Part shown: piece by piece, positions 49,400 through 53,904 of the stretch
How positions within the stretch are numbered: the stretch's first letter is position 1
How the letters are laid out: the number at the start of each line of letters is the position of its first letter
DNA from: an uncultured Bacteroidales bacterium
GTDB taxonomy: Bacteria > Bacteroidota > Bacteroidia > Bacteroidales > UBA1402
Reading direction: 5' to 3'
Assembly (NCBI GenBank): GCA_942493385.1
Contig: OW818699.1
Span: 1,981,550-2,045,549 of the forward strand
Length of the DNA: 64,000 bases
Translations under genes and position numbers: made by a program
The notes under the pieces: model-generated
Told to the model about the DNA's origin: nothing
Databases searched by the model: none
The model's input: only the letters and a program-made list of their open reading frames with translations

Positions 49400-50362
49400 T
49401 TACAACCACTCCTCCTTCTTAACCTCCCCCTGCACCGAAACCACGATGACCTTGATGGGAATGTGCCGTTTGGCTTTGTCGCGCGCCGTTTTGGCAATAC
49501 CGACCAAGCCGCTGCAGCATGGCACTTCCATGATCATGACGGTGAGCATGTCAATTTCTGAGTCGTCAATCATGGATTCCAGTTTCTCCAAGTAATGGTC
49601 GATGTTGCTGTCCAATTTGGGACAGGCAATGGCCAATTTCTTACCTTTCAGGAACTTGCTGTGGAAGTTTCCAACTGCGAAAGCGGTGCAGTCGGCGGCC
49701 AGCAAGACGCTGGCACCTTGAAAGTAGGGTGCCTGAGGATTCAGTAAATGAAGTTGGACTGGAAACTGGCGGAGCTCGGAGGCTTGCTCTACCAATGAGG
49801 AAGCTGAAACAGTTTCAGAAGCGGCAGTCGCAAACGCAGGCCGCATGCCCTGCATCGGGCTTTTGGGAGTAACTCCAGCAGGCACCTGACACGCCTCATA
49901 AACTGGTTTTTTCGGTAAGCCGGCTCCAACAGCTGCAGCCGGTTCGCCCCAGGTCTTTTCATGAGAACCGGAACACCCGCAAGCCAACGTTTCCTGCTTG
50001 TGCAATAAGGCGACGTCAAAATCAATGCCGTGTGCTTTGAGCCAAGCGACCCCCTCCTGAACCAATTTCTTTTCACCGTGATCTTTCAGGTGCTTGAGAT
50101 GCGCCAGAATGACCGCTTCCCCTTTGCCGGAGATGCGTTCCATCACGGCGGACTCGCTATAGGGTTCAGCCTCGCGTTCTTCAAGGACGATGGCATTCAC
50201 TGGGCATTCGCCGATGCAGGCACCAAGCCCATCGCAATAAAGTTCGCTTACCATGACAGCCTTGCCGTCAATGAGTTGAAGGGCGCCTTCGTGGCAGCCG
50301 GTTACGCAATTGCCGCAGCCGTTGCATAAGTTTTCGTCGATTTTGATGATGGTCCGTTTCAT
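49400..50362 (-). CDS. 4Fe-4S dicluster ferredoxin-like protein (FrdX-type)
   Basis: CNGCGNCVTGCHEGA, CDGLGACIGECP; C-terminal LRQFPVQL..LAADC..IACPKLD..MEVPCC. The true start is probably MKRTIIKIDE at 50362. Confidence 0.88.
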   Translation of the reverse strand: MKRTIIKIDENLCNGCGNCVTGCHEGALQLIDGKAVMVSELYCDGLGACIGECPVNAIVLEEREAEPYSESAVMERISGKGEAVILAHLKHLKDHGEKKLVQEGVAWLKAHGIDFDVALLHKQETLACGCSGSHEKTWGEPAAAVGAGLPKKPVYEACQVPAGVTPKSPMQGMRPAFATAASETVSASSLVEQASELRQFPVQLHLLNPQAPYFQGASVLLAADCTAFAVGNFHSKFLKGKKLAIACPKLDSNIDHYLEKLESMIDDSEIDMLTVMIMEVPCCSGLVGIAKTARDKAKRHIPIKVIVVSVQGEVKKEEWL

Positions 50363-50366
50363 AGGG

Positions 50367-50374
50367 CAAAAGTA
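50367..50374 (-). promoter_or_regulatory. -7 promoter element of the ferredoxin-like gene, 4 nt from the ATG
   Basis: The minus strand reads TACTTTTG-CCCT-ATG. Confidence 0.7.
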
Positions 50375-50394
50375 CATCAACTAGGCGGCGTTTT

Positions 50395-50414
50395 TTTGTA
50401 ACCAATGTTACAAA
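50395..50414. promoter_or_regulatory. Crp/Fnr-family (HcpR-type) operator palindrome TTTGTAAC-CAAT-GTTACAAA
   Basis: Perfect 8-bp arms with a 4-nt spacer between a Crp/Fnr gene and its divergent neighbour. Confidence 0.75.
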
Positions 50415-50435
50415 TTGCATATCTTTGAAAAAAAA

Positions 50436-51107
50436 ATGTCCAAACTTTTTCAATGTCCCTTGTTTCGTGGCATTCCCACTGAAGAGATTGCGGTTTTGCT
50501 GGCAGACCACTATACGGTGAAAACATTTCGCGCAGGCGAGTTGATTGCCTTGCAGGCCAGTTTGTACGATCATCTGCTCATTGTTTCAGAGGGTTTTGTT
50601 CGGGGTGAAATGACCGATGCCCTGGGCCGAAGCACCTTGATTGAAGAAATTCAAACACCAAGAGCCATCGCACCTGCCTTTTTGTATGCCACCGAAAACA
50701 GGCTTCCAGTTTCCATCATCGCTGCCGTTCCGACTGAAATCACGTCTATTCACCGCACTGTTTTTACTTCCATGATGCAAAAGGATGCCCGATTGCTCAC
50801 CAATTACCTCAACAGCATGGCCGACCGCAGCCGATTCTTGTCAGAAAAACTTCGCATGCAACGCTTCGGCACCATCAAAAGCAAGCTGGCCCGTTACCTG
50901 CTTGAAATCTCCCAACGATTGGCAAACAGTTCCACGCCGCTGACTGAATTCACCATACCCCATACCCAACAACAACTCGCCGATATCTTTGGCGTGACAA
51001 GGCCTGCATTAGCCCGCGCCATCAAACAATTGGAGAATGAAAACATCATTCAAACCAAAACAAAAAACTTCCGAATTCTGAATAGAAAACAGTTGATGGA
51101 TCTTTAG
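50436..51107 (+). CDS. Crp/Fnr-family transcriptional regulator (HcpR-like)
   Basis: cNMP-binding-like domain (LFQCPLFRGI, IVSEGFVRGEM, IAPAFLY) and HTH (HTQQQLADIFGVTRPALARAIKQL). Own TATCTTTG at 50420-50427; ATG at 50436. Confidence 0.9.
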   Translation: MSKLFQCPLFRGIPTEEIAVLLADHYTVKTFRAGELIALQASLYDHLLIVSEGFVRGEMTDALGRSTLIEEIQTPRAIAPAFLYATENRLPVSIIAAVPTEITSIHRTVFTSMMQKDARLLTNYLNSMADRSRFLSEKLRMQRFGTIKSKLARYLLEISQRLANSSTPLTEFTIPHTQQQLADIFGVTRPALARAIKQLENENIIQTKTKNFRILNRKQLMDL

Positions 51108-51489: not shown

Positions 51490-51622
51490 GCACGATTTGA
51501 TTGGGCTGCAAAGATAGAAAATCCGTTTTCAATTCGAATATTAAGGAGTGTTAATCTTGCAATATGGCAGTTTGTGTGTTACATTTGAATAGCCGTTAAT
51601 GCTAGTTGGGGCGTTCAGCCAA

Positions 51623-52507
51623 ATGAAAAACCGAGTCTTGGTTTGGTTGCTGATGCTTTGGGGATTCTACTCCTGCGAGCTGCCCATCGCAAATGAAACG
51701 GACCGGTTTTATTCCGATACGCTTCAGGTAGGGACGTATAATGTCCGAATTTCAACTCCTGTCGATAACGACCACCGTTCCTGGTGTTTCCGTCGCAATT
51801 TCGTGGCATTGCAAGTCTATACGCATGGATTTGACGTGTTTGGAATTCAAGAGCTTGTGGATGGGGATCAGGAAATGGACCTCAAACTATTGCTTCCTGA
51901 CTTTGCCTTTTATGTGAAAGGAAACGGCAATTCGGCCGGAAACTGTGGAATGCGGATTGCTATTGTTTACGACAAACGTCGCTTCGAAGTACAGGATTCC
52001 GGATTCTTTTTCCTGTCTGAAACGCCTGATCGACCATCATTGGGCTGGGATGCCGACTTTGTACACCTCTGTCAGTGGCTCAAATTGCACGATAGGCATA
52101 CCTTGAAAGACTTCTATTATTTCAACACCCACCTCAACTGTACCGGTAAAGAAGCCCGCAAAAATAGTGTTCTGCTGATACTGGATAGAATAAGTCGTTT
52201 ACCAGCGGAAATTCCAGTCATTTTGAGTGGAGACTTTAATGCCGCCCCTTCAGAAACGGATACTTATGGACCACTTTCAAGCCTTCTTTCTGACAGCAGA
52301 GTAACGACTGAAACCGAGCCGGAAGGTTTTTCGGGTACGTTCAACAACTGGGATTGGCTCACATACAAGTTTACGGAAGATCGCAGGATCGACTATGTTT
52401 TTGTTCGTTCTGTCTGTGTACTCAGCTATCAAGCCATCAACGATCAGTATGTAGACGATTGCTGGCCATCCGATCATTTTCCCGTTAAGATTTCTGTGGT
52501 TCTGTAA
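51623..52507 (+). CDS. Endonuclease/exonuclease/phosphatase (EEP) family lipoprotein
   Basis: Lipobox GFYSC; TYNVR, GIQEL, NTHL, LSGDFNA, RIDYVF, SDHFPV; promoter TACATTTG at 51580-51587. Confidence 0.88.
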   Translation: MKNRVLVWLLMLWGFYSCELPIANETDRFYSDTLQVGTYNVRISTPVDNDHRSWCFRRNFVALQVYTHGFDVFGIQELVDGDQEMDLKLLLPDFAFYVKGNGNSAGNCGMRIAIVYDKRRFEVQDSGFFFLSETPDRPSLGWDADFVHLCQWLKLHDRHTLKDFYYFNTHLNCTGKEARKNSVLLILDRISRLPAEIPVILSGDFNAAPSETDTYGPLSSLLSDSRVTTETEPEGFSGTFNNWDWLTYKFTEDRRIDYVFVRSVCVLSYQAINDQYVDDCWPSDHFPVKISVVL

Positions 52508-52556
52508 TCGGTTTTTATATATTTGTACACCGGTTCGGTACAAAACAATTTTTTAA

Positions 52557-53396
52557 ATGGCAAAAACAACCATGATCCGAAAGGTCTCCGGCGATATGGA
52601 ACCTTTCTCCAGGACCAAACTGATGTCCTCGCTCCATCGTTCGGGAGCCGACAATGAAACCGTTCATTCCATCATCGCGGATGTGGAATCTTGGATGTTC
52701 GACGGCATCACCTCCAAAAAGATCTACGACAGAGCTTTTGCACTGTTGCGGAAGAAGCAACTCGGTATCGCTGCAAGGTACAAGTTGAAGAACGCCATGA
52801 TGGAACTCGGACCGACCGGTTATCCGTTCGAATTCTTTGTAGGCCAGGTATTTAAGTTGCAAGGCTATCATGTGGAAGTAGGGCAGGTGCTTCAGGGACA
52901 CTGCGTCACCCACGAGGTGGATGTGATTGCGACCAAGGACATGCATCAGTATTTCGTCGAGTGCAAGTATTACCAAACCACCGGAAAGAATGCCAATGTG
53001 CAAGTGCCCATGTACATTCGTTCGAGGGTGGACGACCTCATCAAATTCCGAAAGGACTTGCCTCAGTACGCCGGATATACGTTTCACGGCGTTGTGGTGA
53101 CCAACACCCGTTTCACCACGGATGCCATCTCCTTTGGGGAATGCACCGGTTTGGAATTGTTGAGTTGGGATTATCCTTCCGGAAAAGGATTGAAGGAATT
53201 CATCGACAAGGAGCATATATTCCCAGTAACCGTATTGACCAAGCTTCTGAATGCGGAGAAGCAGCAGCTGATGGAAAGGGGCATTGTCATTTGCAGTCAG
53301 TTGCTCGAGAATCCTGAAGCCTTGTTGCATATTGGTCTGGATGAACGCCGTCAACAAAAAATCCTGGACGAAGTCCGAATCCTTTGTCCGTTTTGA
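52557..53396 (+). CDS. ATP-cone domain fused to an Mrr-like PD-(D/E)xK restriction endonuclease domain
   Basis: N-terminal IRKVSGDMEPFSRTKLMSSLHRSGA (ATP-cone-like); central PFEFFVGQVF..HEVDVIATK..VECKY..VVVTNTRFTTDA (Mrr_cat-like); short helical tail. Own TATATTTG at 52518-52525. Confidence 0.8.
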   Translation: MAKTTMIRKVSGDMEPFSRTKLMSSLHRSGADNETVHSIIADVESWMFDGITSKKIYDRAFALLRKKQLGIAARYKLKNAMMELGPTGYPFEFFVGQVFKLQGYHVEVGQVLQGHCVTHEVDVIATKDMHQYFVECKYYQTTGKNANVQVPMYIRSRVDDLIKFRKDLPQYAGYTFHGVVVTNTRFTTDAISFGECTGLELLSWDYPSGKGLKEFIDKEHIFPVTVLTKLLNAEKQQLMERGIVICSQLLENPEALLHIGLDERRQQKILDEVRILCPF

Positions 53397-53421
53397 TGAC
53401 TCTCCAAAGTGACATATTGAA

Positions 53422-53904
53422 TTATTCTTGGGTAAATTCTTGAATGAGTTGGGCGAATTTCGGAAATTGTTCAATTAATAGATCGCGTTCAGCCAGTTCA
53501 AAATCTTTAAACTCAAAACCAGGTGCGACAACGCAACTGACAAGTGCAAAGTTCCTTCCATCCGCCACTTTCGCTGCAAACCAGACATTGGCCGGCAAAA
53601 CCACTTGAGGTACTTCCCCATTTGCCAGATCGTTTCCCAGCAAGATGGTTTCTAGTTTACCTTGAGACAATACTTGGACGACTAAAGATGTTCCCTGATG
53701 AAAAAACCAGGCTTCATCAGATTTAAGGCGGTGAAAATGGGATTTGTCCTTTTCTTTGAGCAAGTAATAAATGACCGTGCTCGTTCTTCTCAAGCAGTCT
53801 TCGCCCATAACAATTTCTTGTTCAGACCGAAAAGTTTCCCTGTAATAACCACCCTCCGGATGTTCTTTTAACTGTAATTCCTGTATGAGTGCGCTGGCGT
53901 CCAT
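53422..53904 (-). CDS. Cupin_5 (DUF985) family protein
   Basis: LKEHPEGGYYRETF, TVIYYLL, SHFHRLKSDEAWFFH, LVSCVVAPGFEFKDFEL. Confidence 0.9.
   Translation of the reverse strand: MDASALIQELQLKEHPEGGYYRETFRSEQEIVMGEDCLRRTSTVIYYLLKEKDKSHFHRLKSDEAWFFHQGTSLVVQVLSQGKLETILLGNDLANGEVPQVVLPANVWFAAKVADGRNFALVSCVVAPGFEFKDFELAERDLLIEQFPKFAQLIQEFTQE

Follow-up and report, generated by a model that had tools for sequence, protein, structure and literature searches.

A predicted ATP-cone-controlled nuclease of the AF1548 type in Bacteroidota, and its operons with RNase, stress and salvage genes in relatives

Ligand-gated PD-(D/E)xK nucleases are so far known mainly from immunity, where they occur as CARF and SAVED effectors, and we are aware of functional work on ATP-cones only in ribonucleotide reductases (RNRs) and NrdR. 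ATP-cones are transferable allosteric modules that act via nucleotide-driven oligomerisation and can bind ATP, dATP and dADP, and in some cases monophosphates as well (PMC5794259). Here we describe a gene in a 64,000-nucleotide (nt) stretch of the genome of an uncultured Bacteroidales bacterium (contig OW818699.1; "the window" means this stretch at its full length), whose 279-amino-acid (aa) product consists, in order, of an ATP-cone, a PD-(D/E)xK nuclease and a C-terminal domain like that of AF1548 from Archaeoglobus fulgidus. An earlier note, made from the DNA alone, had presented this gene as a candidate nucleotide-sensing defence or stress nuclease. We favour, with a probability of about 0.5, the reading that it encodes an AF1548-type endonuclease, probably controlled by its ATP-cone, and that its role is nucleic-acid cleavage tied to energy or nucleotide status and not immunity.

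AF1548 (PDB 1Y88) is the only solved relative. Its nuclease core and C-terminal domain are homologous to those of the protein described here (phmmer E 2.5e-22 over query residues 94-274, profile E 3.1e-50, Foldseek E 2.6e-15, target-normalised template-modelling score 0.82), and it has the same D-ExK residues, D38, E51 and K53, which have been predicted to be catalytic (PMC1821046). Unlike our protein, AF1548 is without an ATP-cone, the match starting at its residue 22, and it stands in the record as a structural-genomics "hypothetical protein" with a predicted function only. The RNRs (NrdA, NrdD and Leeuwenhoekiella NrdB) and NrdR have the same cone with the same hairpin lysine motif (K9 and K21 here), and comparable nucleotide-driven oligomer switching would be expected; the output module in the present case, however, is a nuclease and not a reductase or a zinc-ribbon DNA binder, and no RNR genes lie nearby. 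In the CARF and SAVED nucleases (Can1/Can2, Card1, Cdn1 and Cap4), a nucleotide-binding sensor is likewise fused to a PD-(D/E)xK nuclease, and their cores resemble this one (Cdn1 and Can2 by Foldseek, Pfam Card1_endonuc in 7 members of the family, and CARF_PDDEXK weakly in PADLOC). Here, in contrast, an ATP-cone takes the place of CARF or SAVED, and the gene is surrounded by stress and metabolic genes, with neither a CRISPR or CBASS context nor a cyclase or source of cyclic oligoadenylate. By analogy, the protein may resemble these ligand-gated nucleases in how it works without belonging to their class. With Escherichia coli Mrr and other type IV enzymes it has the Mrr_cat domain in common, but it differs from them in having no Mrr_N winged-helix reader, in its core-like inheritance and in the metabolic context of its operons.

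The placement of the open reading frame (ORF) in the earlier note was exact in start, stop and length, and its central observation, an ATP-cone joined to an intact PD-(D/E)xK nuclease, was borne out by Pfam, by conservation, by Foldseek and by an AlphaFold2 (AF2) model. The model, built on a 96-sequence alignment, has a predicted local distance difference test score (pLDDT) of 96.3 and a predicted template-modelling score of 0.91. Conservation figures throughout are from 96 diverse homologues of 32-89% identity; "homologue" and locus labels such as L001 refer to relatives of the 279-aa protein and to the loci that carry one. The features of the gene are as follows.

52557-53396, forward strand: coding sequence, 279 aa, with ATG at 52557 and TGA at 53394-53396.
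52572-52778, forward strand: ATP-cone, residues 6-74, from Pfam, profile alignment, Foldseek and conservation.
52581-52583 and 52617-52619, forward strand: codons of K9 and K21, predicted phosphate-binding lysines, from alignment to NrdD and NrdR cones.
52806-52832, forward strand: junction motif LGPtGYPFE, residues 84-92 (LGPxGFPFE in the family), from conservation.
52818-53162, forward strand: PD-(D/E)xK core (Pfam Mrr_cat, PF04471), residues 88-202; E 1.3e-7, 32.2 bits against a cut-off of 21.
52830-52832, 52920-52922, 52959-52961 and 52965-52967, forward strand: codons of the catalytic residues E92, D122, E135 and K137.
52902-52904, 52911-52913, 53142-53144 and 53292-53294, forward strand: codons of the conserved C116, H119, C196 and C246.
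53220-53378, forward strand: AF1548-like_C domain (PF22357), helical, residues 222-274; 23.7 bits against a cut-off of 23.9, and 27.5 bits when scanned alone.

When the domains were checked with hidden Markov models, Mrr_cat scored above its cut-off. The cone model (PF03477) reached 22.0 bits in the query against a cut-off of 25.8 (E 2.4e-4), but it matched 91 of the 96 diverse homologues at E ≤ 0.01, with a best E-value of 1.3e-10. The family profile in turn reaches the cones of NrdR and NrdD at E ~1e-3, and the N-terminal domain of the AF2 model superposes on the NrdR cones of E. coli and S. coelicolor with a root-mean-square deviation of 1.7-2.1 Å over 81-85 columns (Foldseek). In the model, strands 6-8 and 14-16 and helices 19-28, 33-46, 53-67 and 69-75 make up a four-helix cone with an N-terminal beta-hairpin lid. 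The nucleotide-contacting motif V-x-K-x-x-G-x-x-E-x-F-x-x-x-K is present in the family, with K9 and G12 invariant, K21 conserved at 99% and F17 at 92%, and a profile alignment places these four residues one for one on the cones of P. copri NrdD and E. coli NrdR. Because of the 91 matching homologues, the reach of the profile to NrdR and NrdD, the aligned motif and the superposition on NrdR, the ATP-cone assignment is not in doubt despite the sub-threshold score of the query. K9 and K21 correspond to lysines that we take, from published RNR structures, to contact phosphate. Position 53 of the cone is also conserved; it is S in the query and T in 92% of relatives. Designed helical-repeat entries of the PDB that matched the cone profile were dismissed as spurious repeat matches.

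The catalytic set that had been read from the sequence as PFE..EVD..VECK is intact and corresponds to E92, D122, E135 and K137. D122, E135 and K137 are invariant in the alignment, E92 is conserved at 99%, and R157, D160 and N183 of the nuclease core are likewise invariant. Such a pattern in the alignment is the one expected of catalysis and not of mere binding. Within the junction, G85 and F91 are invariant and P86, G88, P90 and E92 are conserved at 92% or more. The last helix of the cone runs straight into this near-invariant LGPxGFPFE segment, and the glutamate at its end is E92, the first of the catalytic acids. The segment thus offers an obvious route of coupling and is a candidate allosteric coupling element; gating of the nuclease by nucleotides would be the natural reading of the fusion. 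Five homologues of 324-408 aa (P0121, P0122, P0138, P0172 and P0187) carry an insertion of 45-130 aa after about query residue 161-167, in a poorly conserved segment of the query between the helix with R157 and D160 and the strand with T182 and N183. That these longer proteins carry inteins was ruled out, as no intein or other domain was found in the variable insertion.

The AF1548-like_C domain aligns to residues ~140-193 of 1Y88 and is probably a nucleic-acid-binding module; judging from the classification of 1Y88 and the pattern of the sequence, it may be helix-hairpin-helix-like. A single-sequence AF2 prediction of this domain was not used, since its pLDDT was 71 and its secondary structure conflicts with the full-length model. 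C116, H119, C196 and C246 are conserved at 80-97% across the family, and all three cysteines are also found in AF1548. These residues could form a metal or redox site, which would be of interest if the clusters of relatives serve at low oxygen.

The family is large. Among protein clusters at 90% identity, 3,593 match the query and at least 6,947 match the family profile; among representatives at 50% identity, 1,188 match, 433 of them below 1e-30, nearly all of them ~280 aa long and aligned end to end. Named members come from Bacteroidales, Muribaculaceae, Saprospiraceae, Chitinophagaceae, Cyclobacterium, Pontibacter, Roseihalotalea, Balneolaceae/Fodinibius and one plasmid of the Chlamydiota, and their source annotations vary between "restriction endonuclease," "ATP cone domain-containing protein," "ATPase" and "Holliday junction resolvase-like." It is a Bacteroidota-centred, uncharacterised family of AF1548-type PD-(D/E)xK nucleases. 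As had been noted, public annotations already display this domain architecture, which is widespread in Bacteroidota with a uniform length of ~280 aa, and the earlier statement that no functional study is known also stands, as none of an ATP-cone nuclease or of AF1548 turned up in the full-text literature searched. Nor did we find in that literature the functional context described next, an operon with a beta-CASP RNase within a stress and salvage cluster.

This context emerged from 100 loci that contain a homologue, in which ORFs were called and neighbouring genes clustered; loci with at least 52% identity to the query were set apart as the Bacteroidales clade. Among the loci below 52% identity, a gene for a beta-CASP protein of ~458 aa with metallo-beta-lactamase (MBL) and RMMBL domains follows at positions +1 to +3, in the same orientation, in 35 of the 54 that have enough downstream flank. 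Counting all loci, this partner occurs in 41, at +1 in 30 and at +2 in 9, on the same strand. The gap between the two genes is at most 18 bp in 27 of 30 loci, and often they overlap by 4-8 bp. On the other side, 26 of 51 loci below 52% identity have tandem genes for universal stress proteins (Usp) among the three genes upstream. The nearest relatives of the beta-CASP partner are the Thermus RNase TTHA0252 (E 1.4e-72), the type VII Cas14 and aCPSF1. The partner has the RMMBL "RNA specificity" domain; its match to the ligase-associated DNA-damage exonuclease TIGR04122 is weak (E 9.8e-13).

Two co-directional layouts recur among the wider clusters. In layout A, a PAS kinase, a regulator with response-regulator, cNMP-binding and Crp domains (RR-cNMP-Crp), four to six Usp genes and a gene for a 136-aa uncharacterised protein precede the nuclease gene, which is followed by those for the beta-CASP protein, Hsp20 and further uncharacterised proteins. 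In layout B, the upstream part comprises type II glyceraldehyde-3-phosphate dehydrogenase (GAPDH), a DeoC/LacD aldolase, phosphofructokinase (PFK), MgtC, D-lactate dehydrogenase (D-LDH) and Usp; the nuclease gene is followed by genes for an 84-aa uncharacterised protein, the beta-CASP protein, a 500-aa protein resembling thymidine and AMP phosphorylases, a protein like phosphoribosyl pyrophosphate (PRPP) synthetase, DUF3108, PPK2, AAA_28 and a P-type ATPase. Fructose-bisphosphate aldolase is also among the glycolytic genes of relatives' clusters. Usp, Hsp20, RR-cNMP-Crp, type II GAPDH, DeoC/LacD aldolase, the phosphorylase-like protein and PRPP synthetase were named by scans of cluster representatives; PPK2, AAA_28 and P-type ATPase are precomputed Pfam labels, and PFK, D-LDH and MgtC were named by eye from their sequences. 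A conserved 136-aa ORF stands directly upstream of the nuclease gene in 10 loci (for example, L072:3913-4323, forward strand), and a conserved 84-aa ORF ending in CCGGH stands between the nuclease and beta-CASP genes in 9 loci (for example, L087:3534-3788, forward strand); sequence searches of Pfam, NCBIfam and the PDB gave no match for either.

In gene content these clusters resemble two known sets of genes for hypoxia or dormancy, the low-oxygen lxa locus of Burkholderia cenocepacia and the DosR regulon of Mycobacterium, with several Usp genes, alpha-crystallin/Hsp20, phosphofructokinase, a cation P-type ATPase, fermentative enzymes and a sensor kinase or Crp regulator. The first four of these, with alpha-crystallin for Hsp20, are known to be common to lxa and DosR (PMC3721108), and the main text of the lxa paper contains none of the terms "nuclease," "ATP-cone" and "metallo-beta-lactamase." The likeness is an analogy of gene content and not a demonstrated homology of loci, and the window itself has no such cluster.

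A four-gene core, annotated in RefSeq as ATP-cone protein, MBL fold hydrolase, thymidine phosphorylase family protein and ribose-phosphate pyrophosphokinase, is found on a Pontibacter plasmid (L103), where a 2-hydroxyacid dehydrogenase precedes it, and on a plasmid of Criblamydia (Chlamydiota; L104), where its neighbours are a P-type ATPase, phosphoketolase, glucan phosphorylase (glgP) and acetate kinase. The cluster adjoins an IS5 transposase in L103 and a site-specific integrase in L104. This adjacency, together with the occurrence in another phylum, suggests that the whole stress and salvage cluster, and not the nuclease alone, moves horizontally. In Fodinibius, two genes downstream of the homologue (L018:7200-8729, forward strand), a 509-aa protein combines an N-terminal ATP-cone with a hydrolase of the Glycoamylase family (PF10091). 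Its cone is of the same subtype, being 51% identical over 68 aa to that of the neighbouring nuclease, and the cone is therefore used on another polymer-degrading enzyme in the cluster. A cone-less version of the Glycoamylase-type hydrolase lies beside the cluster on the Criblamydia plasmid (L104:13895-15196, reverse strand).

The favoured reading can be set out as a sequence of steps. The cone would bind adenine nucleotides, be it ATP versus dATP or the di- and monophosphates, and binding would alter conformation or oligomeric state, as in RNRs and NrdR. Through the LGPxGFPFE junction, this change would turn the metal-dependent site E92/D122/E135/K137 on or off; the nucleic acid would be held by the helical domain at the C-terminus. 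As for the direction of gating, we infer that the cone keeps the nuclease off at plentiful ATP and that the nuclease acts under energy or oxygen limitation. PD-(D/E)xK enzymes cut so as to leave a phosphate at the 5' end, and RNA with a 5'-monophosphate is what beta-CASP RNases of the RNase J/TTHA0252 type break down, in the 5'-to-3' direction, to nucleoside monophosphates (NMPs). In most relatives outside the Bacteroidales, the nuclease gene is translationally coupled to that of the beta-CASP RNase, which would extend the cuts of the nuclease. The most economical model for substrate and physiological role would have the endonuclease open RNA (or DNA), the beta-CASP enzyme digest it to 5'-NMPs, and the enzymes of salvage and fermentation recycle the products when ATP is scarce, the NMPs being substrates for the products of the adjacent phosphorylase, PRPP-synthetase and PPK2 genes. 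In the strictly anaerobic Bacteroidales lineage of the window, the favoured reading holds that only the nuclease remains, as a lone, vertically inherited gene with its own candidate promoter.

A bolder version, which we put forward tentatively, would make the family the gatekeeper of a horizontally mobile module, not described before, that turns nucleic acid into energy, with the same cone subtype also gating a glycan hydrolase. In such a module, the ATP-cone endonuclease would be released as the adenylate charge falls and the coupled beta-CASP exoribonuclease would make 5'-NMPs; the AMP-phosphorylase-like, PRPP-synthetase-like and PPK2 enzymes would then pass ribose and phosphate on to glycolysis, phosphoketolase and fermentation, so that ATP is regenerated in anoxia or dormancy. 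If this holds, the ATP-cone would be a general energy-charge switch that mobilises polymer reserves, beyond its part in dNTP supply in RNRs and NrdR.

Several observations weigh against the favoured reading. In the Bacteroidales clade itself, the neighbours of the gene are variable, the beta-CASP gene is adjacent in 0 of 23 loci and Usp genes lie within three genes upstream in 0 of 24, and there are no cluster partners within the 64-kb window. Because the window and its own clade are without these partners, the role is transferred from relatives that are 44-51% identical. The loci compared are also phylogenetically non-independent, and their genes were called with a crude ORF caller. Fnr/Crp-type boxes (TTGA-N6-TCAA, TGA-N6-TCA and TTGAT-N4-ATCAA) in the cluster loci are not enriched relative to shuffles and are mostly intragenic, so that the hypoxia signal is drawn from gene content alone. 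With regard to the substrate, RNA or DNA, the nuclease is also similar in fold to enzymes that act on DNA, namely Hjc, NucS/EndoMS, MspJI and the R2 endonuclease. Finally, the Pfam score of the query's own cone lies under the gathering threshold, and no biochemistry of any family member, AF1548 included, was found in the full-text literature searched.

The main rival is that the protein is a nuclease of DNA repair or recombination, either structure-specific in the manner of Hjc or NucS or processing ends together with a beta-CASP DNA exonuclease, and that the cone limits its activity to certain dNTP/ATP states, such as those of dormant or non-replicating cells. Weak matches to the profiles of Hjc, UPF0102 and NERD occur in members of the family, the structures retrieved by Foldseek include EndoMS in complex with double-stranded DNA, MspJI and AspBHI, and the C-terminal domain may bind the DNA backbone. 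Moreover, some beta-CASP enzymes act on DNA, the partner matches TIGR04122 weakly, and the classical ligand pair of ATP-cones, ATP and dATP, reports on the supply of DNA precursors. Yet the partner is far nearer to RNases, given its match to TTHA0252 and its RMMBL domain, and in the 100 neighbourhoods it is metabolic and stress genes that recur, not genes of repair such as those for ligase, RecA or helicase. We consider a repair role unlikely, but of the alternatives it deserves the most attention. By comparison, a non-catalytic, nucleotide-sensing DNA-binding regulator, in which the nuclease fold would serve as a DNA-binding module only, seems very improbable. NrdR does show that an ATP-cone and a DNA-binding domain can make a nucleotide-sensing repressor, and inactive restriction-endonuclease folds serve elsewhere as binding modules (NA-iREase1 is weakly matched in 4 members), but the conservation of all four catalytic residues across sequences as little as 32% identical speaks against it, as does the lack of a conserved operator-like repeat upstream of the gene among the orthologues compared.

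The defence half of the earlier claim imagined a single-gene anti-phage or abortive-infection system in which the cone senses phage-induced shifts in NTP/dNTP and unleashes the nuclease. The parallel with sensor-bearing CARF and SAVED nucleases is real at the level of the nuclease domain, where Cdn1, Can2, Card1 and CARF_PDDEXK are all matched, and the gene does stand alone with its own candidate promoter in the window genome. In PADLOC-DB v2, however, the protein has no full-length match to any defence protein model; the partial matches cover only the nuclease core, range from E 1.8e-4 to 2e-2 and are nonspecific, the best being CARF_PDDEXK at 1.8e-4 (residues 87-159) and the ZorD nuclease domain at 3.4e-4. 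Relatives were found in 0 of 50,697 phage records (tblastn), in none of the 2.9 million contigs of IMG/VR (profile-derived scan) and on 2 of 72,556 plasmids, both times within the metabolic cluster. A PADLOC check for a defence neighbourhood gave 7 weak matches among 107 neighbour proteins, namely those within three genes of the homologue at 19 Bacteroidales-clade loci and in the window, and none in the window itself. The matched models include some of the MADS system (mad2 twice, mad3 and mad8), probably from one or two loci. No defence-island setting was seen. The gene's conserved synteny, its housekeeping-like divergence under strong purifying selection and its operons with RNase, salvage and fermentation genes in other lineages also tell against immunity, which we regard as improbable. 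The earlier note had held that homologues consistently inside metabolic operons would imply another role, and outside the Bacteroidales clade such operons (beta-CASP, Usp, Hsp20, glycolysis, salvage and PPK2 clusters) are largely what we found; its suggestion of a stress nuclease is favoured by the evidence, and that of a defence nuclease is unsupported. Least probable of all, to the point of being hardly credible, is a type IV, Mrr-like enzyme that restricts modified DNA. Mrr_cat does match above threshold, sources do call members "restriction endonuclease," and a cognate methyltransferase, whose absence had been pointed out earlier, was indeed found neither in the window nor in the related loci inspected. 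The analogy with Mrr-like nucleases that cut modified DNA is nevertheless unsupported, as Pfam detects no Mrr_N, SRA or other modified-base reader at E ≤ 0.1 and the N-terminus is instead the ATP-cone. The distribution is core-like and syntenic, mobile elements are without the gene, the operon context is metabolic, and further members with Pfam-annotated contexts lie among ordinary metabolic, transport and regulatory genes with no methyltransferase. Judged by its domains, and because it has no reader domain, the protein is not an Mrr-type restriction enzyme, nor does it belong to any PADLOC defence family.

In the window, the surroundings of the gene are of the housekeeping kind: a UbiA-type prenyltransferase, a 4Fe-4S protein, a Crp/Fnr-family regulator, DUF454, a hydrolase of the endonuclease/exonuclease/phosphatase (EEP) family, the nuclease gene, Cupin_5, a peroxiredoxin, a GDSL hydrolase and phosphoglucomutase. 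The features that bear on the unit are as follows.

49400-51107: 4Fe-4S protein on the reverse strand beside a Crp/Fnr-family regulator (cNMP_binding and HTH_Crp_2) on the forward strand.
51599-52507, forward strand: EEP-family hydrolase (Exo_endo_phos, E 3e-16).
52515-53474, reverse strand: ORF of 319 aa that spans the whole nuclease gene on the opposite strand, with no supporting evidence of its own; judged to be a shadow ORF.
52518-52525, forward strand: candidate Bacteroidetes-type -7 box TATATTTG (consensus TAnnTTTG), read from the sequence, 31 nt before the ATG.
53422-53904, reverse strand: Cupin_5 (DUF985) gene, convergent, 25 bp downstream of the nuclease gene.

TAnnTTTG is the established consensus of Bacteroides promoters, and the box sits just past the stop codon of the EEP gene (52505-52507). 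The same box is found at the same distance in the orthologous loci L041, L001 and L003, where a divergent DUF454 gene takes the place of EEP upstream, so that the earlier suggestion of a promoter of its own is plausible. Scans for sigma-70 promoters and terminators performed at chance level and are uninformative at this gene. No Fnr-type box was seen in front of it in the window, and a palindrome in its 5' leader (GTAC..GTAC, 52525-52541) was dropped, as it is not conserved in orthologues. With the conserved -7 box upstream and the convergent Cupin_5 gene downstream, the gene is therefore predicted to be a monocistronic unit in this genome, in agreement with the one-gene system proposed before.

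The EEP hydrolase does lie directly upstream on the same strand, as the earlier note said, but the adjacency is idiosyncratic: none of 102 related loci has an EEP homologue close to the gene, and the hydrolase is absent from the orthologous L001 and L003; it was rejected as a functional partner. Its N-terminus is hydrophobic, ends in LWGFYSC and by eye looks lipoprotein- or signal-like. This suggests that it is an exported enzyme unrelated to the predicted cytoplasmic nuclease.

L001 (85% identity) and L003 (69%), the two closest genome loci with usable flanks, keep the order DUF454, nuclease gene, peroxiredoxin and GDSL hydrolase, and the EEP, Crp and Cupin_5 genes are missing from this region in them. 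The Crp/Fnr-family regulator of the window is absent from L001. The Cupin_5 gene has no counterpart at the corresponding place in L001 and L003 and is therefore possibly a recent insertion; its guanine-plus-cytosine (GC) content is lower, at 0.39-0.40 against ~0.46-0.50, and that of the nuclease gene is unremarkable. In L001, conservation extends to the wider region, and the divergence of the nuclease gene is similar to that of the housekeeping genes around it. Against orthologues, the proportion of nonsynonymous differences is 0.09-0.21, versus a saturated 0.76-0.94 for synonymous ones. Conserved synteny, neighbour-like divergence and these proportions indicate that the gene is vertically inherited and under strong purifying selection in the clade of the window.

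If the nuclease is indeed controlled by its ATP-cone, the reach of this allosteric switch would extend to nucleic-acid degradation, and the ligand-gated PD-(D/E)xK nucleases would gain a counterpart in housekeeping or stress. Members of the family abound in the Bacteroidota, lineages of gut, sediment and sea among them, and the conserved operon with beta-CASP and salvage genes offers a testable hypothesis for how these bacteria may manage RNA or DNA and ATP at low oxygen or energy. The case also carries a caution for annotation, in that a lone, sensor-bearing "restriction endonuclease" need not be a defence gene.

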